A stretch of DNA of 58,909 nucleotides from Nitrospiraceae bacterium (GCA_003599795.1 QZJQ01000007.1:1-58909), one strand, 5' to 3'. Shown: positions 4,577 through 58,909, numbered from the stretch's first letter. Made by a program: numbers and translations. Notes: a model not told the origin generated them from the letters alone.

Positions 4577-5827
4577 TTAACCCATTATTCCCTTGAAGTC
4601 ATTTTCGCTGACAGGCCCGAGCGCCGTAAGCGCAGTTGCGCTTTTGCTTAACAGCTTCTCCGCAAGCCCTTTAACCTGTGCGAGGCTTATGGAATTTATA
4701 TCTTTTATTATCTCCGAAGGCGAGTAATACCTGCCGTAATATATCTCCTGCCGGGCAATGTTCTGCATCCTGCTGCTCGTTGATTCAAGGCCGAGGATAA
4801 GATTGCCCTTAAGCTGAGCCTTGGCCCTTTCTACATCAACATCCGTAAGCATATCTGCCAGGCCCCTCATCTCTTTGAGGACAAGCTCTGTCACCTGAGA
4901 TACTTTCTTTTTTCCCGTCCCGGCGTAAACAGCCAATACCCCAGTATCGGCATAGGATGATATATACGAATAAACAGAATATACCAGCCCTCTTTTCTCC
5001 CTTATCTCCTGAAAAAGCCGTGAGCTTACGCCTCCGCCGAGAATTGTATTCAGAATGAACAATACGTACCTGTCTTTGCTTGCCTGAGGCATACCTTCAA
5101 CGCCGAGACACAGATGAACCTCGGAGAGTTCTTTGCCGTAAACTCTTATTTTACTGCCAAACTCCGGGCGGTCCGGAACGGTTTCAGGCTCTAACCCCTT
5201 TCTGAGAGAACTGAAATTATGATTCAGCGCATCAAGAAGCCTTTCTGTTTCAAAATTTCCAGCGCAGGCTATAACAATACCCTTTGTCCCGTAATGTTTT
5301 TTCGTGTGGCTGACAAGGTCTTCCCTTATAAATGACTTAATCGTCTCTCTTCTGCCGAGTATGGGCTGTCCTATGCCTTCACTGCCCCATATTGTCTGGT
5401 TGAAGAGGTCGTATATGTAGTCGTCAGGCGTATCCTCAACCATCTTTATCTCTTCTTTGATAATCCCCTTTTCTTTTTCTATATCTTCCTCAGGGAATGT
5501 GGAGTGAATGAATATATCAGACAGAAGCTCTATGCCTTTATCAAAATATTCATCAAGGACTTTGATATAAAACGTTGTGCTTTCCCGCGAGGTAAACGCA
5601 TTCAGGTCGCCTCCCATAGAGTCCGTGTCAACGGCGATGTCTTTTGCGGAGCGTTTCTGCGTACCTTTAAAAAACATGTGCTCAAGAAAATGCGATATGC
5701 CGTTCTTCTCAGGCGGCTCGTTCCGGGAACCGACCTTGACCCATACGCCGAGGGCCACAGAACGCACATCCTTTACCTGTTCCATAACTACCGGCATGCC
5801 GTTTTCAAGATAGGTTTTTTTGAACAT
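4577..5827 (-). CDS. M16 (pitrilysin-family) zinc peptidase
   Basis: HFLEH inverted zinc motif; usual position downstream of pnp. Confidence 0.9.
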   Translation of the reverse strand: MFKKTYLENGMPVVMEQVKDVRSVALGVWVKVGSRNEPPEKNGISHFLEHMFFKGTQKRSAKDIAVDTDSMGGDLNAFTSRESTTFYIKVLDEYFDKGIELLSDIFIHSTFPEEDIEKEKGIIKEEIKMVEDTPDDYIYDLFNQTIWGSEGIGQPILGRRETIKSFIREDLVSHTKKHYGTKGIVIACAGNFETERLLDALNHNFSSLRKGLEPETVPDRPEFGSKIRVYGKELSEVHLCLGVEGMPQASKDRYVLFILNTILGGGVSSRLFQEIREKRGLVYSVYSYISSYADTGVLAVYAGTGKKKVSQVTELVLKEMRGLADMLTDVDVERAKAQLKGNLILGLESTSSRMQNIARQEIYYGRYYSPSEIIKDINSISLAQVKGLAEKLLSKSATALTALGPVSENDFKGIMG

Positions 5828-5842
5828 GGTTGTGTACCTTTA

Positions 5843-6023
5843 TGCTGCTGCCGAACGTCTTTGAGCGGCATTGATATTTTTCGTTAACAGTTCTTGGCGA
5901 AATGAAGCGGCCACAGCCTCGACTGTCTGAGTTCCGAAAGTTTTCGGAACGAGTTTCGAGGATGTAGCGGAATAAGACTTAGAACTGTAGAAAAATATCA
6001 CAGAGAGCGAAAGACAGCACTGC
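5843..6023. repeat. Long imperfect hairpin (MITE/REP-like element)
   Basis: Nested inverted arms TGATATTTTTC/GAAAAATATCA, ACAGTTCT/AGAACTGT, CCTCGA/TCGAGG and GTTCCGAAA/TTTCGGAAC. Confidence 0.65.
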
Positions 6024-6059
6024 TTATCTATTACAAAATTTTTTGTAAACTTTGCAGCT

Positions 6060-8183
6060 TTAGTTTTTTGCGGCCTCTTTCTCCCGCATAGCCTCTTTCC
6101 TGCTTAGACGAATTTTGCCTGTCCGGTCCATCTCAATTACCTTAACAAGGACTTCTTCTCCCTCATTAAGCACATCCGTAACCTTTGCTATTCTCTTTTC
6201 ATCTATCTGGGATATATGAAGAAGGCCTTCGGTGCCAGGCATTATCTCTACAAACGCTCCAAAATCAACAATACGCTTCACCTTCCCAAGATAAATTCTG
6301 CCGACCTCTGCCTCGGCAATAATGCCGTTGATTATCTCTATTGCCTTCTGAGCCGCCATTTCATCAGCTGATGCAATATTTATCAATCCTGAATCATCAA
6401 TATCAATTTTAGCTCCGGTCTGCTCTATTATCCCTCTTATCACCTTTCCGCCCGTTCCGATGACATCCCGTATTTTTTCCTTTTTTATCTGCATGGTATA
6501 TATGCGAGGGGCGTGCTTTGCAATCTCTGTCCGCGGTTCGGCAATGGCTTCCTTCATCTTGGAAAGTATGTGGAGCCTGCCGCTTTTTGCCTGCTCAAGC
6601 GCTGTCTCCATTACTGAACGGCTTACGCCGCTTATTTTGCAGTCCATCTGGAAAGCGGTAATGCCCTTTTCAGAACCGGCAACCTTGAAATCCATGTCGC
6701 CAAGGTGGTCTTCCAGCCCGAGGATATCGGTAAGAACTACGGTTTTATCTCCTTCCTTGATAAGCCCCATTGCTATGCCTGCCACAGGCGAGGAAAGAGG
6801 CACTCCTGCATCCATCATGGACAGGGTTGCTCCGCATACTGTCGCCATGGAAGAGGAGCCGTTTGATTCAAGGATGTCTGAAACAATTCTTATGGTATAC
6901 GGAAACACTTCCTTTGAAGGGATTACATATTTTAATGCGCGCTCTGCAAGAGCCCCGTGCCCTATCTCTCTTCTGCCCGGTGAGCGGAGCGGCTTTACCT
7001 CTCCGACGCTGAACGGCGGAAAATTATAATGAAGCATGAAACTCTTATACATCTCTCCGTCAAGAGAGTCAATCTTCTGCTCGTCATCTGCTGTGCCGAG
7101 TGTCGTCACAGCAAGCGCCTGAGTCTCGCCTCGGATAAAGAGCGCCGAGCCGTGCACACGCGGAAGGAAACCAAGATTACAGGATATCTGCCTTATTTCG
7201 CTGGTTTTTCTGCCGTCAGACCTCACTCCCTTGCTGAGGATCATGTTCCTGACAATTTCTTTCTCGTAAGAATCGAAGGCATTTGCAATGTCTCTCGTTA
7301 AATCTTTGCCTGCATCTCCCGAAAGCCTCTCTGAGTTTTCAGGAGTGTTGAACTGCTTGATGGCATCTCCAAGAATTATGTCAAGGGCTTCCTGCCGCTG
7401 ATGTTTCCCCTGAATAGTGATTGCTTCATTAAGCCTTTCTGCAACAAAGGCTCTCACTTCTTTTTCAAGCGCAAGATTTTTTTCAACCGGACTGACCGGC
7501 CTTTTTGCTTTTCCTGCCTTGTCTCTGAGTTCGTTTTGCAGCGCCACAATGCGCTTAATCTCCGCATGGGCAAAATCAATGGCTTCGAGGAGCGATGATT
7601 CCGATACCTCTGCCCCCCCTCCTTCAACCATGATTATGGCATCTGCCGTTCCGGCCACAACGAGGTTAAGATCAAGCTTTTCAGTTTCGGCACTGTCCGG
7701 ATTGATTACCAATGCGCCGTTAATCATTCCCACTCTAACTGCCGCTACCGGCCCTTCAAAAGGAACATCGGATATATGCATGGCAGCAGACATTCCGATT
7801 ATGCCTAAAATGTCCGCAACATTTTCACTGCCGTATGACAGAACTGATGCGATTCCCTGAGTCTCATGATAAAATCCTTTCGGAAATAACGGCCTTAACG
7901 GGCGGTCTATGAGGCGTGATGTAAGAACTTCCTTTTCGCTCGGCCTGCCTTCCCGCTTAAAAAACCCGCCGGGGATTTTGCCTGCGGCATAGGTTCTTTC
8001 CTGATATTCAATCGTGAGGGGGAAAAAATCAAGTCCTTCCTTCTTTTTCTTGTCCGCAACTGCAGTTGCCAGTACTACGGTGTCTCCGAATCTTACTACA
8101 ACAGACCCGCCTGCCTGACGGGCCATTACGCCTGTTTCAATTATCAGCTTCTTTCCTCTAATCTCAATTTCAACTTTAGTCAT
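6060..8183 (-). CDS. pnp: Polyribonucleotide nucleotidyltransferase
   Basis: RNase PH domains (GRREIGHGALA, SNGSSSMA), KH and S1 domains. Confidence 0.97.
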   Translation of the reverse strand: MTKVEIEIRGKKLIIETGVMARQAGGSVVVRFGDTVVLATAVADKKKKEGLDFFPLTIEYQERTYAAGKIPGGFFKREGRPSEKEVLTSRLIDRPLRPLFPKGFYHETQGIASVLSYGSENVADILGIIGMSAAMHISDVPFEGPVAAVRVGMINGALVINPDSAETEKLDLNLVVAGTADAIIMVEGGGAEVSESSLLEAIDFAHAEIKRIVALQNELRDKAGKAKRPVSPVEKNLALEKEVRAFVAERLNEAITIQGKHQRQEALDIILGDAIKQFNTPENSERLSGDAGKDLTRDIANAFDSYEKEIVRNMILSKGVRSDGRKTSEIRQISCNLGFLPRVHGSALFIRGETQALAVTTLGTADDEQKIDSLDGEMYKSFMLHYNFPPFSVGEVKPLRSPGRREIGHGALAERALKYVIPSKEVFPYTIRIVSDILESNGSSSMATVCGATLSMMDAGVPLSSPVAGIAMGLIKEGDKTVVLTDILGLEDHLGDMDFKVAGSEKGITAFQMDCKISGVSRSVMETALEQAKSGRLHILSKMKEAIAEPRTEIAKHAPRIYTMQIKKEKIRDVIGTGGKVIRGIIEQTGAKIDIDDSGLINIASADEMAAQKAIEIINGIIAEAEVGRIYLGKVKRIVDFGAFVEIMPGTEGLLHISQIDEKRIAKVTDVLNEGEEVLVKVIEMDRTGKIRLSRKEAMREKEAAKN

Positions 8184-50881: not shown

Positions 50882-51943
50882 ATGGGCATGAGAAAAAAGT
50901 ATCAAAGTGTCAAAGCGTCAAAGCGTCAAAGCAGCTTCTGCTCTGCTGTTCTGCTGCTCTTCTGCTCTCTACTCATTCTGTCTGCCTGTTCTCCTGCTCA
51001 GGAAACACTCTATAAAAAAACCCGCACTTCTATGTACACCATTGTCTCGATTACTATTTCTTCTGACTCCGAAGAAAAAGCAGAAAAAGCAATTGAGATG
51101 GCATTTAACGAGTTGGACAGGCTCGCAAAGCTTTTAAACTTTTATTCCGAAGACAGCGAAGTATCCGCGATTAACAGAAACGCGGGCAACAGGCCTGTAA
51201 ATGTATCTCAGGAGACATTGGAGATAATAGATAAGGCATTGTACGTGTCGGAAAATACAGAAGGCGGATTTGACATTACAGTCGGGCCATTGGTGCGTTT
51301 GTGGGATTTTCAGAAAAAAATAATTCCTGACGGAGCAACAGTCAAAGAAAAATTAAAATTAGTGGGGTATAAAAATATCATTATAGACAAAAAAGCGTCA
51401 ACGGTCTTTCTTAAAACAAAAGGAATACAGGTAGACCTCGGCGGCATCATAAAGGGTTATGCTGCCGATAAGGCAGTCGGAGTTCTTAAGCAACAGGGCA
51501 TAAGGGCTGGCATAGTCGCGGTTGCAGGAGATATTAAAACCTTCGGTATAAGGCCCGATGGCGGTTTATGGAAGGTGGGGATTCAAAACCCAAGGCAGCA
51601 AACAGATAAAGATGAAATTATGGCAACCGTGGGCCTCTCGGATACAGCTATATCGACATCCGGGGATTACCAGAAATTTTTTATAAAAGACGGCAGAATA
51701 TATCATCACCTTTTAAACCCTAAAACAGGTTATCCTGATAACGAATGCCGCAGCGTAACCATAATAGCAAAGGACGCCGCATTTGCAGACGCCTTTGCGA
51801 CAGGCATATTTATTTTAGGGACGCAGAAAGGCATGGACACTCTGAACCGGCTGGGACTTGATGGAATTATAGTGGACAAAGATGGCAAAATACATGTAAC
51901 ACAAAATCTGCGGAGCAAGGTTGAGTTTAAAAAAGATAAGTAG
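50882..51943 (+). CDS. apbE: FAD:protein FMN transferase lipoprotein
   Basis: LSAC lipobox, FDITVGPL, DLGGIIKGY, STSGDY, YHHLLNP. Confidence 0.92.
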   Translation: MGMRKKYQSVKASKRQSSFCSAVLLLFCSLLILSACSPAQETLYKKTRTSMYTIVSITISSDSEEKAEKAIEMAFNELDRLAKLLNFYSEDSEVSAINRNAGNRPVNVSQETLEIIDKALYVSENTEGGFDITVGPLVRLWDFQKKIIPDGATVKEKLKLVGYKNIIIDKKASTVFLKTKGIQVDLGGIIKGYAADKAVGVLKQQGIRAGIVAVAGDIKTFGIRPDGGLWKVGIQNPRQQTDKDEIMATVGLSDTAISTSGDYQKFFIKDGRIYHHLLNPKTGYPDNECRSVTIIAKDAAFADAFATGIFILGTQKGMDTLNRLGLDGIIVDKDGKIHVTQNLRSKVEFKKDK

Positions 51944-51948
51944 AGCTA

Positions 51949-52470
51949 TTGATGCAATCACAGGATAAATACCGCATAGCCCTGCTCTCAGCTTATGCCA
52001 TTGCAATTCACAGTTTTGAAAACCTTCTGCCGACGCCGATACCATGGCTCAGGCTAGGCATAGCAAACATCATCACTCTTGCAACGCTCGTTCTCTACGG
52101 ATTCAGGGCCGCAATGATGGTAACGCTTATACGGGTGATAATATCCTCCATGTTCATCGGCACATTTCTTGGCCCCGGCTTTATCATGAGCTTTTGCGGA
52201 GGAGTTTCAAGCACAGCGGCAATGGGGCTTGCCTTCTCAATGTTTCCAAGGCTCTTTGGCCCTGTAGGACTCAGCCTAATCGGCGCATTATTCCACAATG
52301 CAGCCCAGCTTTTTATTGCATACGTGTTGTTCGTCCAGCAGATAAAAGCTGTCTTAATAGTAGCGCCTTTTTTGATTTTGTTAGGGACCATCACAGGCGT
52401 TGTGAACGGCATTATAGGAGGCATGCTCATCAAGAATATTTCAGAAAAATCACCCGGCGCATCCGGATGA
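51949..52470 (+). CDS. Gx transporter family (heptaprenyl diphosphate synthase component I-like) membrane protein
   Basis: P.PWLRLGIAN, SLIGALFHN..Q; typical apbE neighbour. Confidence 0.8.
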   Translation: MMQSQDKYRIALLSAYAIAIHSFENLLPTPIPWLRLGIANIITLATLVLYGFRAAMMVTLIRVIISSMFIGTFLGPGFIMSFCGGVSSTAAMGLAFSMFPRLFGPVGLSLIGALFHNAAQLFIAYVLFVQQIKAVLIVAPFLILLGTITGVVNGIIGGMLIKNISEKSPGASG

Positions 52471-53078
52471 TGCGGCTGAATGCTCATAGGGTCTTTGCCG
52501 CAGCTTCTCTTACCGCCGCGGTATCGCATATAGCAGCTGTCCTTGTCGCCGGATTTTTAACGCCTGATTATTCTCTAACTCAGAGGGCCATCAGCGACCT
52601 TGGTATCGCCGGTCAGCCATATGCCTTTCTCGTCAACTATTTCGGCTTCGCCTTGCCGGGTGTTTTTATTCTGTTGGCAGCCCTGTCAGCCCATAAGCCT
52701 TGGGCTTCTGCTTTACCGCCCAAACTTGGGCTGAGGTGCATGGCATGCGCCGGCGTGCTCCTAATTGCCGCAGGTTTCTACCCGTTTCCTTCATTGATTC
52801 ATCTCACTTCTGCTCTTCTCGCCGGGCTCTCGGCATCCATCAGCATCTTCGGGTTCTCTGTCTATATCATGAAGAATAAGGGTTATTCAGTCTTGGCTAT
52901 ATCAGGGTTCACTATCGCAATTCTCATCTTAATGGACGCCGCAACATGGGTTCTGGCTGAGACTCAGCATATCAGGATTCACGATTTCATGGGACTCCAG
53001 CAAAGGCTTGCCGCTTTTTCAGCGTTCATCTGGTTCAGCGCCTTAGCAATCGCATATACACAGAAGCTAAGGCACTAA
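52467..53078 (+). CDS. DUF998 membrane protein
   Basis: PDYS..QRAISDLG, GLQQR; ATGA overlap gives start 52467. Confidence 0.75.
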   Translation: MMRLNAHRVFAAASLTAAVSHIAAVLVAGFLTPDYSLTQRAISDLGIAGQPYAFLVNYFGFALPGVFILLAALSAHKPWASALPPKLGLRCMACAGVLLIAAGFYPFPSLIHLTSALLAGLSASISIFGFSVYIMKNKGYSVLAISGFTIAILILMDAATWVLAETQHIRIHDFMGLQQRLAAFSAFIWFSALAIAYTQKLRH

Positions 53079-53120
53079 AATATCCTTGACATTTACTCCC
53101 CTAATGTTTGACAATTCATT

Positions 53121-54056
53121 ATGACTACTAAAAAAATGAATTTTAAAAAACTACTGCTAATCCTATCAGGCGGCATCATCCCGCTGGGCTTTATTTTTTA
53201 CTCATCTGTTTTTCTGGCAACGACTTCATGCGAACCTCCGGCTTATACACCGCCGCAGGTTTATTACCGCCCGATACCTCAATTCGGCGATTTATATTCA
53301 TTCCCGAAATATAACATACCTGAAGCCAGAAAACCCGGCAGTGCAAATCTGACGGTGGTAATAACAGTCCCTGAATATAAAGACACTGCCACGCAGGAAT
53401 ATGTTGGCGGGGCCAAGGTAGCTGCAGGCGGTCCCATGACGCCTGATATGCGAAAGGTCTTCAAGAGTTTTGCCGGAAGCATGGGTGAGGATATTCAATC
53501 GCAGTTAGTTGCCAAAGGCATGACAACAAAAGGCCCTTTCAGCATGGCTGAGGTTACATACCCTGACAAAAAAGGCTCTGACCTCACAATTTCAACAGGC
53601 GTTATATTTGACATTCATTACAGCGACCCTAAGTTTAAGGAACGGGCAAACTTTGAGGGAGGAATTTCGGGGAATGTTTATACCACCACAATGTCTGTTG
53701 GCATGAAAGTCTTCTTCTATATGCTTGAGCCGATGTCGGAGGAAAAGATGTGGATAAAAAAGCTGGACCTCGGGGTTCAGGATTTTCCGGCTGAGTATGC
53801 TGTGGGACAGGAGCAATATCAAACAGGAACTACTCCGCGTACATCTGATGGTTGCGGGGGTTATTACGGGGGACATCCTACCTACGGTTGGAGAGACAAA
53901 GGCACTCTCTATGATGAAAGGGCCAAGATATTCTCTGATATATTGAAAACAGCTTATCCGCAGGTAATGAAAGCTGCATGGAATTATCTGAACACAGATG
54001 AGATGCTCAACCTGAAAATGAAATCTCAGGAAATCAGGGAGAGGAAGAGATATTAA
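53121..54056 (+). CDS. Hypothetical probable lipoprotein
   Basis: Basic N-terminus, hydrophobic stretch, atypical lipobox LATTSC. Confidence 0.6.
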   Translation: MTTKKMNFKKLLLILSGGIIPLGFIFYSSVFLATTSCEPPAYTPPQVYYRPIPQFGDLYSFPKYNIPEARKPGSANLTVVITVPEYKDTATQEYVGGAKVAAGGPMTPDMRKVFKSFAGSMGEDIQSQLVAKGMTTKGPFSMAEVTYPDKKGSDLTISTGVIFDIHYSDPKFKERANFEGGISGNVYTTTMSVGMKVFFYMLEPMSEEKMWIKKLDLGVQDFPAEYAVGQEQYQTGTTPRTSDGCGGYYGGHPTYGWRDKGTLYDERAKIFSDILKTAYPQVMKAAWNYLNTDEMLNLKMKSQEIRERKRY

Positions 54057-54124
54057 GGACTCATCTCCCTCGAGCCGCTCGGGGGTTCATAACAATATCT
54101 TTTATTTAATATCTTCCATCTGAA

Positions 54125-54964
54125 ATGTTACCTTCTATTTATTTCGGCAGCCTGGAAATTTCTACCTGGCGGCTCGCCGCTCTCGGCAGTGTAGTGATAT
54201 GCTGGATTCTCTTTCTGATACGCTCAAAAAAACTGGGTTATTCATTCTATGCGATTTTCCCGTGGTTATTATTTGCCCTGCCGGTCGGCACCTTAGGGGC
54301 TCATCTTTTTAATAAGCTGATTCCTGTTCTTGCCGGGTCTACTTACAGTCCCTCTAATTCTTTTTCCGGCCTTACCGTAATCGGAAGCATTATATCCATC
54401 CTGATATACAGCCTTCTTTACATCAAGTATGTGATGAAAACTCAGCCCATGCCTCTTATGGATGCGGTTGCCTTTACATTTCCTCTCTCAGTCCTGTTAG
54501 GCCGCATAGGCTGCCTTCTGGCCGGATGCTGTTACGGAAGAACAGCTCCTGAATCAATCGGCGCTTCTTTCCTTTCAGCCTTTACGCTGCCTCTTGATTT
54601 CTATACTCCTGCTTCAGAGGCCGGGCAGGCATATCATGACATGCCCCTTAACACCCTTGTATGGAACCTGCCTTTATTGTTTATGCTTGAGGCTTTTGTT
54701 ATATTAGTGATTACTGAAGCCTTGTATCACAAGCGTGAAAAATGGAACCTGCATCCGGGGACGGTCTTTGCATCAGCAGGCGCCCTGTATTCAGGCGGAC
54801 GGTTTTTTTTAGAGTTTATGAGGAAAGATGAGATGGTCGGCAATACTATTTTTAACGCCTGGCAGCTGGCTACATTGGTTCTCTTTCTGTTTTTTACTTT
54901 CTGGCTTTGCTTCAGCCTGTACAGGAGGCGTCAAAATCTATCGCATAACAAGGGAGGCGTTTAA
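54125..54964 (+). CDS. Divergent prolipoprotein diacylglyceryl transferase (Lgt) family protein
   Basis: GRIGC..AGCCYG and Y..GRF..EF.R motifs, multiple TM; lacks HGG and HPxQLYE. Confidence 0.75.
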   Translation: MLPSIYFGSLEISTWRLAALGSVVICWILFLIRSKKLGYSFYAIFPWLLFALPVGTLGAHLFNKLIPVLAGSTYSPSNSFSGLTVIGSIISILIYSLLYIKYVMKTQPMPLMDAVAFTFPLSVLLGRIGCLLAGCCYGRTAPESIGASFLSAFTLPLDFYTPASEAGQAYHDMPLNTLVWNLPLLFMLEAFVILVITEALYHKREKWNLHPGTVFASAGALYSGGRFFLEFMRKDEMVGNTIFNAWQLATLVLFLFFTFWLCFSLYRRRQNLSHNKGGV

Positions 54965-56494
54965 ATGAGAATAATTTTTATAAATCCAAAGCATCATCCC
55001 CATTCAATGAATTTTCACCATTGCATGGACCTTGTAGGCGTGAAATATTCTCACCTGCCGTTGTCTCTTCCTACGCTGGCAGCGCTGACCCCTGCGGACT
55101 GCAGCGTCGGGCTTATTGATGAAAATGTTGAGGCTGTAAATTTTGAAACCGATGCTGATGTTATTGCCTTGACCGGCTCGGTGCCCCAGAGAAAGAGGGT
55201 TTTTGAATTAGCGGACGAGTACAGAAAGCGCGGAAAATTTGTAGCTATCGGCGGGCCGATCTCATTTGACATGCCTGAAGAATGCAAAGCGCACGCTGAT
55301 ACGGTTTTTATCGGCGAGGCTGAATACACATGGCCTGCGTTCATAGATGATTTCAAGCAAGGGAAACAGAAGAGCCTCTACCATCAAAAAGAATTTATAA
55401 ATATTGACGATTCTCCGGTTCCTCATTTTCATCTGATGAAAACAGGCCAGTACGCAAGCGGATGCATTCAGGTAACGCGGGGATGCCCTTACCGGTGCCA
55501 CTTTTGTGATATTCCCATAAAGTACGGCGGACAGCCACGCTCTAAAAAAATAGAACAGGTTCTCAGCGAAATAAGAATTCTTTCAGAACTCGGCAATGAT
55601 TCGGTATTTATTGTGGACGACAATTTCGCAGGCAACAAACCGTATGCCAAAACCCTGTTGAAAGAGATAGCCGGCCTGCTTCCTTCTCTTCCGACCAAGA
55701 TGTACTTTTATACTCAGGCGGCCCTTGATGTGGCGAACGATGATGAACTGCTGAATTTATTCCGGGCGGCAAATTTTCTCAGGCTGTTCATAGGAATAGA
55801 GACCGGAGATAAAGGCAAACTGAGCGAACTGAACAAGAGACATCAGGTGGATATGGACATAAACCGCGCTGTTGAAAAGATCAAGTCCTACGGCATCACA
55901 GTATGGGCCGGCATCATGTTCGGGCTTGAAAGTGATGACCTGTCGTCTTTTGACAGGCAGCTTGAGTTTATCCGTGATACCAACTTTATCCCTGTACAGG
56001 TAGGACTGCTGCAGGCGCTTCCGGAAACCCCTCTTTACAGGCGCGCTCTGGAGACGAACAGGCTGCTGCAACTCCCCTCCTTACTCGGACTGACAGCGCT
56101 CAGCGAGGAAGAACTCTCCAAGGCAACGAACCTGATTCCGCAGAAGATGAGCGAGGAGGAGCTTGAGAAAAACTTTGCGCGCATCCTGAGAAAAATGTTC
56201 TCGCCGGAATCCTTCAGGCTGAAGATGATTCAGTATATCGGCTCTAACACCAGAAACCTGACATCATCAATGCCTGCCCTCAACCTAAAGACAGCAATGA
56301 TACTGGTGCGCATGCTTTCGTTTTACCTGTTCCGGGCTGACAGCAAAACGCGAAAGATGTTCTTTCATGTGCTTAAGGCTCTCGTGTCTCACAGGCTGCG
56401 GAATCTGGATGAGACTGTTTTCCATCTTCTGGCATACAAACACATGCAAACGCACTACTATAGAATAGCGGCTATCTGTGAATCCAAGAGATGA
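54965..56494 (+). CDS. B12-binding radical SAM protein (HpnP/DUF4070-like)
   Basis: N-terminal cobalamin-binding-like domain, RGCPYRCHFC, FIVDDNF, FIGIET. Confidence 0.88.
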   Translation: MRIIFINPKHHPHSMNFHHCMDLVGVKYSHLPLSLPTLAALTPADCSVGLIDENVEAVNFETDADVIALTGSVPQRKRVFELADEYRKRGKFVAIGGPISFDMPEECKAHADTVFIGEAEYTWPAFIDDFKQGKQKSLYHQKEFINIDDSPVPHFHLMKTGQYASGCIQVTRGCPYRCHFCDIPIKYGGQPRSKKIEQVLSEIRILSELGNDSVFIVDDNFAGNKPYAKTLLKEIAGLLPSLPTKMYFYTQAALDVANDDELLNLFRAANFLRLFIGIETGDKGKLSELNKRHQVDMDINRAVEKIKSYGITVWAGIMFGLESDDLSSFDRQLEFIRDTNFIPVQVGLLQALPETPLYRRALETNRLLQLPSLLGLTALSEEELSKATNLIPQKMSEEELEKNFARILRKMFSPESFRLKMIQYIGSNTRNLTSSMPALNLKTAMILVRMLSFYLFRADSKTRKMFFHVLKALVSHRLRNLDETVFHLLAYKHMQTHYYRIAAICESKR

Positions 56495-58002
56495 AAATAT
56501 GCCTTATCAACCCGCGCTTGCCGCTTTCACTGTGGGATTTTTCTTATTCCAGAGACCTTGACGGCAATGCTTTTCCCTTCCCGCCGTTATCGCTTTCTAC
56601 CTTAGCCGCTTTAACTCCGGAGAAACATGAAGTCCTCATATGCGACGAAAATGTCAAGCCTGTTGATTTTGACACAGATGTTGATATAGTCGGCATTACT
56701 GGCTACCACATCCAGAAAGAGCGGGTTTATCAACTGGCAGACTCATTCCGCAGCAAAGGAAAAACTGTGGCCCTCGGAGGGCCCTTCGTCCAAAAATCAA
56801 ATCTTGACGAGTGTGCAGAACATGCCGATGTTGTTTTTCTGGGAGAGGCTGAATATACATGGCCGTCATTCATACGCGATTTTCAATCAGGCAATACTAA
56901 ATCTTTATATGCGCAGGAAGAATTTGTGGATTTAACAGCTTCCCCTGCTCCCCGCTTTGACCTGCTTGAGCTTTCGGCATATTCAACGGCAATCATTGAA
57001 ACATCGCGCGGCTGTCCGCATTCGTGCGAGTTCTGCGAAATACCGATTCGCCTTGGCAAGCGGCCCCGGAATAAATCAGCGGAACAGGTGATGACAGAGA
57101 TTCGCAGCCTATACGCACTGGGCGCAGATTCCATTTTTATCATTGATGACAACTTCTTCGGGAATCGTAAAAGGGCCTTAGAGCTTCTTTCTGAAATCGA
57201 GCGTTTTGTCAAATCCATTGACTACCGGCTTTATTTCAGCTGCCAGTTCACAATAGATATTTCGCGTGACGAAGAGATTCTGTCTCTCATGAACAGGGCC
57301 AATTTCAGGCGCGTGTTTGTCGGCATAGAGACTCCGCGTAAACTCAGCCTGACAATGGCAGGAAAAAACCAGAACACCAATGTAGACCTGCTGGATGCTG
57401 TTCAGCGCATTCAATCAAACAACATAATCGTGTGGGGAGCTTTTATTGTAGGCTTTGACGCTGATGACACTAATATATTCAATGAGCAGCTAAGGTTTAT
57501 ACATGCAGCGTCAATCCCCGTTGCCATGGTTGGAATACTTCAGGCAATTCCCGGAACACCGCTGTACGAGCGCATCAGGCAAGAAGGCAGATTAAGGGAC
57601 AATGAAGAAGGCGGCATAAGAGGGGCTGTTAATAGCCTTATACGAACAAACATCGCACCGCTTAATATGGGCCTTGAAGAGCTTGCCAATGGATATGGAT
57701 TTCTGGTCCGGAATTTATACAGTTATGATAATTTTGCCGAAAGGCTGATAAATGCCGTTAAACTCGGTAAAAAGCATGGAGTCAAAGGCCGGGCAAAAAT
57801 CAGTAAAAAGGGGATCCTGACCTTGCTTCGTCTTTTTAAATATTACGTTTTATCAACCGACCTGCGCAGAATTTATATGTTCATGCGGATTATCGCTCAA
57901 ACGCTCCTGCACAACCCTCAGCATGTGCAAACCGTGCTCATGCACCTCGTCGTATACAAACATCTTAAGCTATTCTATGAACATGGGACATCTTCCAATT
58001 GA
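56491..58002 (+). CDS. B12-binding radical SAM protein (paralog)
   Basis: RGCPHSCEFC, FIIDDNF, FVGIETP, FIVGFD. Confidence 0.88.
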   Translation: MKICLINPRLPLSLWDFSYSRDLDGNAFPFPPLSLSTLAALTPEKHEVLICDENVKPVDFDTDVDIVGITGYHIQKERVYQLADSFRSKGKTVALGGPFVQKSNLDECAEHADVVFLGEAEYTWPSFIRDFQSGNTKSLYAQEEFVDLTASPAPRFDLLELSAYSTAIIETSRGCPHSCEFCEIPIRLGKRPRNKSAEQVMTEIRSLYALGADSIFIIDDNFFGNRKRALELLSEIERFVKSIDYRLYFSCQFTIDISRDEEILSLMNRANFRRVFVGIETPRKLSLTMAGKNQNTNVDLLDAVQRIQSNNIIVWGAFIVGFDADDTNIFNEQLRFIHAASIPVAMVGILQAIPGTPLYERIRQEGRLRDNEEGGIRGAVNSLIRTNIAPLNMGLEELANGYGFLVRNLYSYDNFAERLINAVKLGKKHGVKGRAKISKKGILTLLRLFKYYVLSTDLRRIYMFMRIIAQTLLHNPQHVQTVLMHLVVYKHLKLFYEHGTSSN

Positions 58003-58054
58003 TTTTGCTTCCTGCGCGCAGTATTATATTTCTAAAGGATGATAAGGAGAAACA

Positions 58055-58528
58055 ATGCTGACAGCTAAAGACATAATGACAAAGAATGTGACAACAGTTA
58101 ACGCATCAACCACAATAGAAGAACTGGCACGGATACTCATGGAACTTAAAATCAGCGGCGTGCCGGTTGTAGATGATAATGAAAACTTAATCGGCATAGT
58201 CACGGAAAACGACCTTATAAGCCGGGACAAAAGGCTTCACATTCCTACTGTGATGAGGCTTTTTGACGCATTCATTGTCCTTGAAAGCCAAAGCAAGATA
58301 GAAAAAGAGATTAAAAGGATGACAGCAATTACAGTGAATGACATCTATACAAAAGATGCCATAACTGTTGCTGAAGGCACGCCTGTTCAGGACATCGCCA
58401 CCATAATGTCTGAAAAAAAGGTTCACCTTATCCCTGTTGTTGAGGGGAAAAATGAGAAAAAAATTATCGGCATAATCGGCAAGATAGACTTAATCAAAGG
58501 GATAATTCGCCCCGGCGAATCCGCTTGA
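58055..58528 (+). CDS. CBS domain protein
   Basis: AKDIMT, ISGVPVVD, GIVTENDL tandem CBS. Confidence 0.88.
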   Translation: MLTAKDIMTKNVTTVNASTTIEELARILMELKISGVPVVDDNENLIGIVTENDLISRDKRLHIPTVMRLFDAFIVLESQSKIEKEIKRMTAITVNDIYTKDAITVAEGTPVQDIATIMSEKKVHLIPVVEGKNEKKIIGIIGKIDLIKGIIRPGESA

Positions 58529-58584
58529 GGCGGACAGGCAGCGCACAATAAAAACATCTTCTGTTATAATTATTTAATAAAAAA

Positions 58585-58909
58585 ATGAGCGACCTTTATG
58601 ATGTGATAATTATAGGCGGAGGCCCAGCAGGGCTTTCAGCAGCGCAGTATGCAGCAAGGGCAAAACTAAAGACAATTGTCCTTGATAAATCCAGAACCGC
58701 AGGCGCCCTTGCGTTCGCGCACAAGATAGAAAATTACCCGGGCCTTTCAGCGCCACTGACGGGAAAAGAACTGCTTGATATATTCAGAAAGCAGGCGATT
58801 GATTTCGGAGCCGAATACGTTGAGGTTCAGGTTATAGGAGTGAATCTCAGCAGCAATGCAAAAGAAGTCTTTACGATGGATAAGAACTACAGCGGCAAGA
58901 CCGTAATCA
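58585..58909 (+). CDS. trxB: Thioredoxin reductase-like FAD oxidoreductase (partial, runs off the window)
   Basis: MSDLYDVIIIGGGPAGLSAAQYAAR...IENYPG. Confidence 0.8.
   Translation, partial: MSDLYDVIIIGGGPAGLSAAQYAARAKLKTIVLDKSRTAGALAFAHKIENYPGLSAPLTGKELLDIFRKQAIDFGAEYVEVQVIGVNLSSNAKEVFTMDKNYSGKTVI

Follow-up and report, generated by a model that had tools for sequence, protein, structure and literature searches.

A mobile gene module linking a divergent Lgt paralog with a putative HpaA-fold lipoprotein and two radical SAM proteins in Nitrospirota

The window analyzed here, a DNA stretch of 58,909 nucleotides taken at its full length, corresponds to contig C3 in the metagenome-assembled genome of a Nitrospirota bacterium (1.40 Mb, 63 contigs, 74.7% complete). 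Positions 53121–58002 of the window contained four genes, all on the plus strand, encoding a putative exported lipoprotein (lipoP), a divergent paralog of the diacylglyceryl transferase Lgt (LgtL), and two paralogous radical S-adenosylmethionine (SAM) proteins (rSAM1 and rSAM2). The four genes formed one inherited, self-contained, horizontally mobile module, whose carriers were a small group of uncultured groundwater Nitrospirota. The product of the module is probably a specially anchored lipoprotein with the HpaA fold, made by a chemistry not yet described. We favored, with a rough probability of 0.4, the reading that LgtL is an Lgt dedicated to a single substrate, which lipidates lipoP, and that the radical SAM pair tailors the hydrocarbon part of the anchor or of its donor lipid.

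Lgt is usually treated as one housekeeping enzyme, with one lipobox rule for all lipoproteins. The module represents a natural case of an extra Lgt that is genetically tied to one substrate protein, and LgtL departs from ordinary Lgt in elements recently linked to protein-substrate specificity; with such a matched pair of enzyme and substrate, the choice of substrate by Lgt becomes directly testable. The coupling of an Lgt paralog to two cobalamin (B12)-type radical SAM proteins has no described counterpart; a full-text literature search for Lgt and B12 radical SAM combined found no paper. If the favored reading is true, a lipoprotein anchor or donor lipid tailored by radical SAM enzymes would be a new substrate class for lipid-modifying radical SAM chemistry.

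The four genes and their co-inheritance

The gene for lipoP (53121–54056, 311 aa), identified as a probable exported lipoprotein with the HpaA fold from an AlphaFold2 (AF2) model, Foldseek, ESM Atlas and alignments, was followed after a gap of 68 bp by that for LgtL (54125–54964, 279 aa), assigned to a divergent third Lgt paralog with the Lgt fold from PF01790, an AF2 model and a phylogenetic tree. The genes for rSAM1 (54965–56494, 509 aa) and its paralog rSAM2 (56491–58002, 503 aa, approximately 39% identity) encoded proteins of the same architecture, a radical SAM domain (PF04055) with a B12-like N-terminal domain and DUF4070. The stop codon of LgtL abutted the start of rSAM1 (TAAATG at 54962–54967), and rSAM1 overlapped rSAM2 (ATGA at 56491–56494). 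Both the four co-oriented genes and these two junctions had been described in an earlier reading made from the sequence only (hereafter, the sequence-only reading), and they were confirmed by the open reading frame (ORF) and junction positions. The motifs that it quoted were all present as well: LATTSC and SDGCGGYYGGHPTYGW in lipoP, and in LgtL, GLTVIGS for GG(H/Y)GG, WNLPLLFMLE for HPxQLYE, GR, and RFFLEFMR.

The distribution of the genes was analyzed in 401 evenly sampled Nitrospirota genomes. LgtL was found in eight, the genome of the window included; the others were three of the seven genomes of its own family, one of the four of another family in the same order, and three of the 64 of a family outside the class. 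Orthologs of rSAM1 (at least 71% identity) occurred only in these eight genomes, and rSAM1 paralogs with identities of 41% or less were present in 180 of the 401 (match E ≤ 1e-40). Strong matches to lipoP were likewise obtained in the eight LgtL-bearing genomes, with five weak matches elsewhere. The order lipoP, LgtL, rSAM1, rSAM2 was kept in all seven of the other LgtL genomes, which belong to three families, rSAM2 being cut by the contig end in two of them. In metagenome loci of the cassette type, some of which were near-duplicates of each other, LgtL lay directly 3' of lipoP in 23 of the 24 loci where the downstream DNA exceeded 250 bp; at the remaining one, L124, only the first 148 residues of lipoP were present. 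Where enough DNA was available beyond LgtL, rSAM1 came after it in all such loci (14/14). In the genus of the window, a cassette-free genome, G280 (99% complete), had one lgt and no lipoP. The association proposed in the sequence-only reading is thus conserved in other genomes.

The flanks of 10 divergent cassette loci were unrelated and contained no conserved fifth gene, which suggested that no fifth partner is needed. Genes for ApbE, a PF07456 protein and a DUF998 protein upstream, and for CBS and TrxR proteins downstream, were conserved beside the cassette in the genus of the window only. In some lineages, genes of the mobile-element type were found beside the cassette, namely an rve-family integrase of the insertion sequence (IS) type (8331–9320 in L094, G154:C25) and a Gp49-like protein (L107:924–1274), and these neighbors fit horizontal movement of the module.

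LgtL, lipoP and the GCGG loop

LgtL matched the Pfam LGT family (PF01790) with 88.7 bits against a cut-off of 24.9, and it remained under every NCBIfam cut-off for Lgt (TIGR00544, 46.9 vs 118.9 bits; NF000778, 66.2 vs 334 bits). The AF2 model of LgtL had a predicted local distance difference test (pLDDT) score of 90.5, and the only PDB match found by Foldseek at E ≤ 0.001 was Escherichia coli Lgt (5azb; E 4.1e-7, template modeling (TM) score 0.65); as modeled, LgtL has the seven-helix Lgt fold. In a quick Lgt tree, LgtL formed a distinct clade on a long separate branch, with a Shimodaira–Hasegawa-like approximate likelihood ratio test (SH-aLRT) value of 100. Two other, ordinary lgt genes (261 and 235 bits) were present in the genome of the window, one of them adjoining lsp. 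Each cassette genome tested contained one or two ordinary lgt genes besides LgtL, and lsp was single in 5/5 tested. The expectation in the sequence-only reading that a separate canonical lgt exists elsewhere was therefore borne out, and on both points that it had offered for refutation in silico, a non-conserved association and a sole lgt, the results were in its favor.

LgtL shared with canonical Lgt of the Lgt-Lsp-Lnt pathway (E. coli 5azb/5azc) not only the fold and the PF01790 match but also the signature glycines and the arginine, glutamate and tyrosine residues of the active site region. According to alignment A6, the E. coli residues G99, D129, G142, R143, G145, G154, Y235, R239, E243, and R246 were retained, the LgtL equivalents being G82 (G99), G126 (G142), R127 (R143), G129 (G145), G138 (G154), Y222 (Y235), R226 (R239), E230 (E243), and R233 (R246). 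R127, R226, and R233 were invariant in 61 sequences and were included in the 32 positions that were invariant over 16 LgtL-family sequences down to 31% identity. The conserved residues clustered toward the periplasmic side of the predicted helices. In E. coli Lgt, mutation of R143, R239, E243, or R246 is not tolerated, and the role proposed for these residues is activation of the phosphatidylglycerol C3-O bond (PMC4728403).

LgtL differed from canonical Lgt, besides being a third paralog below the NCBIfam cut-offs, in the replacement of E. coli Y26 by R16, H103 by I86 (in GLTVIGS), N146 by C130, and E151 by Cys. In the head domain, the HPSQLYE sequence (HPxQLYE) was lost, and LNTLVWN...LPLLFMLE was found instead, with extra residues inserted before it. 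It also differed in its setting, as its gene always lay with a certain lipoprotein gene on one side and the two radical SAM genes on the other. The E. coli E202Q variant is still active (PMC4728403), so HPxQLYE is not strictly catalytic. The protein-substrate specificity of Lgt is reported to depend on arm-2, H103, and the head domain; the same source gives Y26, H103, and N146 as essential in the E. coli enzyme and calls H103 poorly conserved (PMC13251419). The N146-to-Cys and E151-to-Cys replacements were also present in the lsp-adjacent housekeeping lgt of the genome of the window and in many other bacteria. The GRxGCxxxGCCxG signature, considered as a special feature of LgtL, was rejected as such; it occurred in the same housekeeping lgt and in 531 relatives from other bacteria, confirmed by tblastn. 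Retention of the catalytic residues together with changes in the specificity elements is the pattern that would be expected of an Lgt with the same chemistry and a new protein substrate.

The proposed substrate, lipoP, had no match in Pfam (E ≤ 0.01) or NCBIfam, PF05211 included. Its AF2 model, built with 56 sequences, had a mean pLDDT of 89.5, and the top PDB matches by Foldseek were Helicobacter pylori HP0492 (2i9i, E 1.3e-9), 3bgh (E 1.7e-9), and HpaA (8t8d, E 1.2e-8), with a probability of 1.00; identity to the HpaA-family structures in the structural alignments was 10–13%. The ESM Atlas neighbors of lipoP were PF05211 clusters (0.95–0.98), and some relatives of lipoP had precomputed PF05211 matches (P0201, P0228, P0231, and others). 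In the predicted structure, lipoP has the fold of the Helicobacter HpaA lipoproteins. The second tier of Foldseek matches consisted of the ring-forming envelope lipoproteins CsgG, PelC, and FlgT (E 6e-5 to 1e-3, TM approximately 0.2–0.3).

With H. pylori HpaA, HP0410, and HP0492 (NLBH superfamily, PF05211), lipoP shared an elongated alpha/beta fold that carries a beta extension at its apex, a lipoprotein-like signal at the N-terminus, and apical loops that are the variable, function-specific part (PMC10936181). Unlike HpaA, in which an exposed apical LLF loop is needed for adhesion (PMC10936181), lipoP had a long conserved anchor of approximately 26 residues and an apical Cys-Gly-Gly instead of the hydrophobic LLF; its hosts are environmental Nitrospirota rather than Helicobacter, and its linkage to an Lgt paralog is new. 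The HpaA superfamily has been stated to be exclusive to Helicobacteraceae (PMC10936181). The source labels of the distant HpaA-like relatives of lipoP (P0182–P0329, L126–L177) included Nitrospirota, Smithella, Thermoanaerobaculia, Holophaga, Elusimicrobiota, and Gammaproteobacteria; a fold published as restricted to Helicobacteraceae thus extends, through distant relatives, to environmental bacteria from several phyla.

The N-terminus of lipoP consisted of two conserved basic residues, K9 and K10, an uncharged stretch, and Cys37, which was present in 27/27 cassette-type sequences. The lipobox-like sequence was T-T-S-Cys37 in the window protein and L-T-G, I-T-A, or similar in orthologs; position -1 was G, A, or S, position -2 was T in 23/27, and position -3 was T in the window protein and L or I in others. 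The bacterial lipobox consensus after the signal peptide is [LVI][ASTVI][GAS]C (PMC12462473). The uncharged stretch was 25–27 residues long, vs 13–22 in distant relatives, and carried an IPLxFxxYP motif (P21 in 25/26, F24 in 26/27, Y27 in 22/27, and P28 in 22/27). A Gly-rich insertion at residues 87–107 (KDTxxQEYxGG...GGxMT) was specific to the cassette type. In the model, an apical loop, S-D-G-Cys245-G-G, joined two long strands (209–238 and 252–265), at a position corresponding to the apical region that is variable in HpaA (PMC10936181). The loop Cys was present, as [D/G][G/E]CG[G/E], in all 26 cassette-type metagenome loci in which the loop could be read, and the sequence around it varied among orthologs. 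In one genome of the same genus (L093, G396:C68, 4954–5933), lipoP was found in two pieces in different frames (residues 6–182 and 166–311), a split that represents a frameshift or an assembly error.

The loop Cys was connected with Lgt outside the cassette as well. We compared 52 metagenome loci with distant relatives of lipoP (29–39% identity), at which neither LgtL-type nor radical SAM genes were found (tblastn E ≤ 1e-6). [D/N]GCGG occurred at the same alignment position in six of these loci, and in all six an Lgt ORF lay directly upstream, with 121–147 bits at L154, L160, L166, L174, and L175 and as a fragment at the contig edge at L168. Among the 46 non-GCGG loci, 27 of which had at least 500 bp of upstream DNA, only one, L164, had an upstream Lgt, a weak fragment. 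As a negative control, 80 loci centered on Lgt genes of other bacteria, ordinary Lgt genes taken from a scan with the widespread GRxGCxxxGCCxG signature, contained no HpaA-like ORF (0/80). The [D/N]GCGG loop therefore tracks an adjacent Lgt both in the cassette clade and in a distant clade without radical SAM genes, which is a new result.

A quick tree of the lipoP family separated the cassette clade (100 SH-aLRT) from the clade with the other GCGG proteins, and within this second clade GCGG was patchy. The Lgt genes beside the distant GCGG proteins formed one clade (99 SH-aLRT). Like LgtL, they were without the H/Y-G-G of arm-2 (GFSVFG, GLSTFG), but they kept HPxQxYE. In the enlarged HpaA-like family, GCGG was present in 54 of the 109 full-length clusters, and many relatives without the loop Cys had glycine-flanked, exposed hydrophobic tips instead (GFLVG, GLFG, GFWGG), which by analogy recall the LLF loop of HpaA. 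The GCGG proteins tended to have an atypical lipobox, with P, H, Q, or T at -2. The sequence-only reading had proposed an Lgt dedicated to its neighboring substrate; this proposal is independently supported by the link between GCGG and Lgt in a second clade, and LgtL also differs from ordinary Lgt in its specificity elements.

When genomes with the distant GCGG-plus-Lgt pairs were sought to obtain their context, there were 0 matches in five named-locus genomes and 0/301 in the phylum to which G403 belongs; for the phylum of G401, matches were found in 2/301 genomes, neither of the GCGG type nor beside Lgt. At L166:2398–4330, the genes next in line after the Lgt and the GCGG-type HpaA-like protein encoded a permease of the MacB/FtsX type and a LolCDE-kind ABC ATPase, which gives the cluster a lipoprotein-handling theme.

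The radical SAM pair and the readings of the module

Both radical SAM proteins matched PF04055 (63.3 bits for rSAM1 and 56.2 for rSAM2, against 29.5) and DUF4070. The CxxxCxxC motif was located at residue 174 in 12/12 rSAM1 orthologs and at residue 175 in 12/12 rSAM2 orthologs. The two ortholog sets had 97 invariant positions in common, and 29 further positions were invariant within each set and differed between the sets. CobS, for cobalamin supply, was encoded in 5/5 cassette genomes tested. In the ESM Atlas, rSAM1 found only generic DUF4070/radical SAM clusters, and a PDB sequence search with it gave only remote matches to AprD4 (6fd2), 9ccb, and MiaB. Both proteins were far below the cut-off for all characterized NCBIfam families, among them PhpK, the methyl-coenzyme M reductase (MCR) glutamine methyltransferase, TIGR04013, the ladderane-associated TIGR04072 (74 vs 360 bits), HpnJ (63.9 and 68.2 vs 577.6), BchE, and HpnR (49.5 and 49.4 vs 650). 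The model of HpnP was not among the 25 best families shown for rSAM1 or rSAM2.

The CxxxCxxC motif and the domain order of the pair (B12-like, radical SAM, DUF4070) were shared with the lipid-modifying B12 radical SAM enzymes, namely the hopanoid methylases HpnP and HpnR, HpnJ, the glycerol dialkyl glycerol tetraether (GDGT) ring synthases GrsA/GrsB, the GMGT methylase Gmm, and the candidate ladderane enzymes. The available text of a 2026 review describes all of the lipid-modifying B12 radical SAM enzymes it covers as acting on hydrocarbon chains, with paralogous pairs working in sequence on such chains as a known theme (PMC13459092). The rSAM1 and rSAM2 proteins differed from these enzymes in that no equivalog model was reached, and no known member is linked to Lgt or a lipoprotein in that text, in which the words lipoprotein, Lgt, and DUF4070 were absent (PMC13459092). 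The sequence-only reading had drawn an analogy with HpnP. The architecture held, as HpnP-like proteins have B12, radical SAM, and DUF4070 domains (PMC10697835), and the hopanoid pathway did not. Squalene-hopene cyclase (PF13243) was not found in genomes G000 (75% complete), G196 (100%), or G154 (99%), and was present in G118. With no cyclase in G196 and G154, two complete genomes from the genus of the window, and with HpnR and HpnJ far below cut-off, hopanoid methylation of the HpnP type was rejected for this genus.

The nearest non-cassette paralogs of the pair (34–37% identity) were found in varied contexts: beside a gene of the 3-beta-HSD type, beside GNAT and PEMT-family genes, and in a triple tandem with methyltransferase, CoA-transferase, and OEP/HlyD genes. 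The triple tandem came after a large methyltransferase-domain protein and two CoA-transferases and was followed by TPR-PilZ, OEP, and HlyD genes. Loci L198 (G377:C20, 5560–19279) and L199 (G075:C21) carried common Nitrospirota paralogs of the B12/radical SAM/DUF4070 type.

In the scheme that we favored, lipoP would be exported through Sec. LgtL would be dedicated to lipoP; it keeps the Arg/Glu network for activation of the phosphatidylglycerol C3-O bond, in an active site predicted to face the periplasm, and its arm-2/H103 region and head domain have been rebuilt. It would transfer diacylglyceryl from a phosphoglycerolipid to a conserved Cys of lipoP, either the lipobox-like Cys37 or, slightly favored, Cys245 in the apical D-G-C-G-G loop. 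In the cytoplasm, rSAM1 and rSAM2 would most likely catalyze two radical reactions in sequence (C-methylation or C-C bond formation), and the most likely substrate would be the hydrocarbon chains of the future anchor lipid. Accessory genes beyond the core pathway are involved in the tailoring of lipoprotein lipid forms in Firmicutes (the Staphylococcus aureus two-component N-acyl transferase; PMC7387801). As far as the two can be compared by description, the Firmicutes systems are acyltransferases on the N-terminus of many lipoproteins, whereas the present module has an Lgt paralog and radical SAM proteins for one lipoprotein.

Given the link between the Cys-Gly-Gly loop and a neighboring Lgt, lipidation at a site other than the N-terminus becomes a possibility. 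A version in which LgtL puts diacylglyceryl on the internal Cys of the apical loop, so that lipoP is anchored at both ends or via its apex, and in which the radical SAM proteins remodel the anchor chains, is in our view unlikely; if true, it would represent the first non-N-terminal lipidation of the Lgt type and the first case of radical SAM tailoring of a lipoprotein anchor.

Several points weigh against the favored scheme or parts of it. To our knowledge, the Cys on which Lgt acts always comes after a signal peptide embedded in the membrane, and a loop of a periplasmic domain would need to extend to a site beneath the membrane surface. Because the atypical lipobox goes with GCGG, the data cannot tell which Cys LgtL serves. 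As they form a single clade, the Lgt genes beside the distant GCGG proteins amount to few independent events, and the fragment at L164 places an upstream Lgt at a non-GCGG locus also. Judged from the alignment, the replacement of Y26, H103, and N146 could mean that LgtL is inactive or performs other chemistry. The B12-binding domain (PF02310) scored 26.4 bits in rSAM1 and 27.6 in rSAM2, below the cut-off of 32.1; in related radical SAM paralogs of other genomes this domain scored between 28 and 50 bits, on either side of the cut-off. The radical SAM proteins are cytoplasmic and the site of LgtL faces the periplasm, and the scheme leaves the route of the product to LgtL unexplained. The contexts of the nearest non-cassette paralogs do not point to one substrate class.

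According to the main rival explanation, which we consider possible but doubtful, the target of the radical SAM pair is the lipoP polypeptide, modified ahead of Sec export by C-methylation or cross-linking in, for example, the Gly-rich insertion 87–107, the DGCGG loop, or the conserved N-terminal helix, and LgtL only lipidates. The radical SAM genes indeed occurred only with the cassette-type lipoP and covaried with three features, the KDTxxQEYxGG...GGxMT insertion, the long conserved IPLxFxxYP anchor, and the remodeled head domain of LgtL, which only the cassette type has; the distant GCGG-plus-Lgt pairs were without a radical SAM gene. The weak NCBIfam matches included methylases of proteins and of ribosomally synthesized and post-translationally modified peptides (RiPPs), such as TIGR04014, the MCR glutamine C-methyltransferase (75 and 83 bits), ApyD, and rSAM_ocin_1; however, all of these matches were far below cut-off, and no peptide-recognition domain, RiPP recognition element (RRE) or SPASM, was found by Pfam. 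A Sec substrate of 311 residues would also need to be modified while unfolded, and the loop sequence near the Cys varies among orthologs.

We regarded as quite unlikely that the module belongs to a membrane-lipid pathway, in which the radical SAM proteins alter phospholipid chains, LgtL is a transferase from lipid to lipid or from lipid to a small acceptor, and lipoP is an accessory periplasmic protein for lipid binding, transport, or pore formation rather than the substrate of LgtL. Lipid modification by B12 radical SAM enzymes is well documented (PMC13459092, in the text available), and the structural matches of lipoP to ring-forming CsgG, PelC, and FlgT, as well as the presence of paralogous radical SAM genes beside PEMT-family and GNAT genes and beside the 3-beta-HSD-type gene, are in line with such a pathway. 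This explanation, however, does not account for the association of the Cys loop with an adjacent Lgt in the clade without radical SAM genes. Moreover, the changes in LgtL were in the elements for protein specificity and not in the lipid-binding arginines, and the literature search turned up no Lgt-fold transferase with a non-protein acceptor.

It is still less probable that LgtL is dead or regulatory, or that lipoP is not a substrate but a partner or cofactor of Lgt-type enzymes (for example, an accessory protein of lipoprotein biogenesis), and that the radical SAM genes were transferred together with them for an unrelated step. The substitution of Y26, H103, and N146, essential in E. coli, would agree with a dead enzyme, and the LolCDE-kind neighbors at L166 hint at general lipoprotein handling. 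Against this, 32 positions including R127, R226, and R233 were invariant across the 16 LgtL-family sequences, the changes of N146 and E151 to Cys were found in a housekeeping lgt too, and the translational coupling at TAAATG and ATGA, together with the fact that the four genes strictly co-occur, opposes an unrelated passenger. Chance adjacency of genes with no common function was excluded for practical purposes by the order kept in 7/7 other genomes of three families with unrelated flanks and by LgtL following lipoP in 23/24 informative metagenome loci.

Regulatory signals and neighboring genes

A promoter-like site, TTGACA-18-GACAAT, was located at 53086–53115 on the plus strand, just 5' of lipoP; it is a pattern match only, with 10/12 matches in a consensus scan. 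The site fits better if lipoP starts at Met6 (ATG 53136), since most homologs start there. A short GC-rich inverted repeat on the plus strand at 54067–54085, in the gap between lipoP and LgtL, was read by eye and was absent from the terminator-scan list; it could lower read-through into the enzyme genes. In one aquifer RNA library, contigs covered 27 of the 30 bins of 52400–58600, mostly with 88–95% likeness; these contigs stem from relatives and were not counted as evidence of expression.

Directly upstream of the module, 50882–53078 encoded ApbE, a flavin mononucleotide (FMN) transferase, a membrane protein of the PF07456 'heptaprenyl diphosphate synthase component I' family, and the DUF998 protein. 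The 344-aa ORF at 52044–53078 is an over-extended reading of the DUF998 gene, the Pfam match of which lay within 52470–53078. In a genome of another family (L095, G118:C38), an ordinary lgt (286 bits) at 5640–6443 was convergent with the cassette, approximately 300 bp from the end of rSAM2. Recurrent neighbors of the non-GCGG homologs of lipoP were a DUF2085 membrane protein (L127, L152, L156) and a DUF6973 protein (L142, L147, L162), and a convergent gene for a UbiA-family prenyltransferase was found beside such homologs at L129, L133, and L145.

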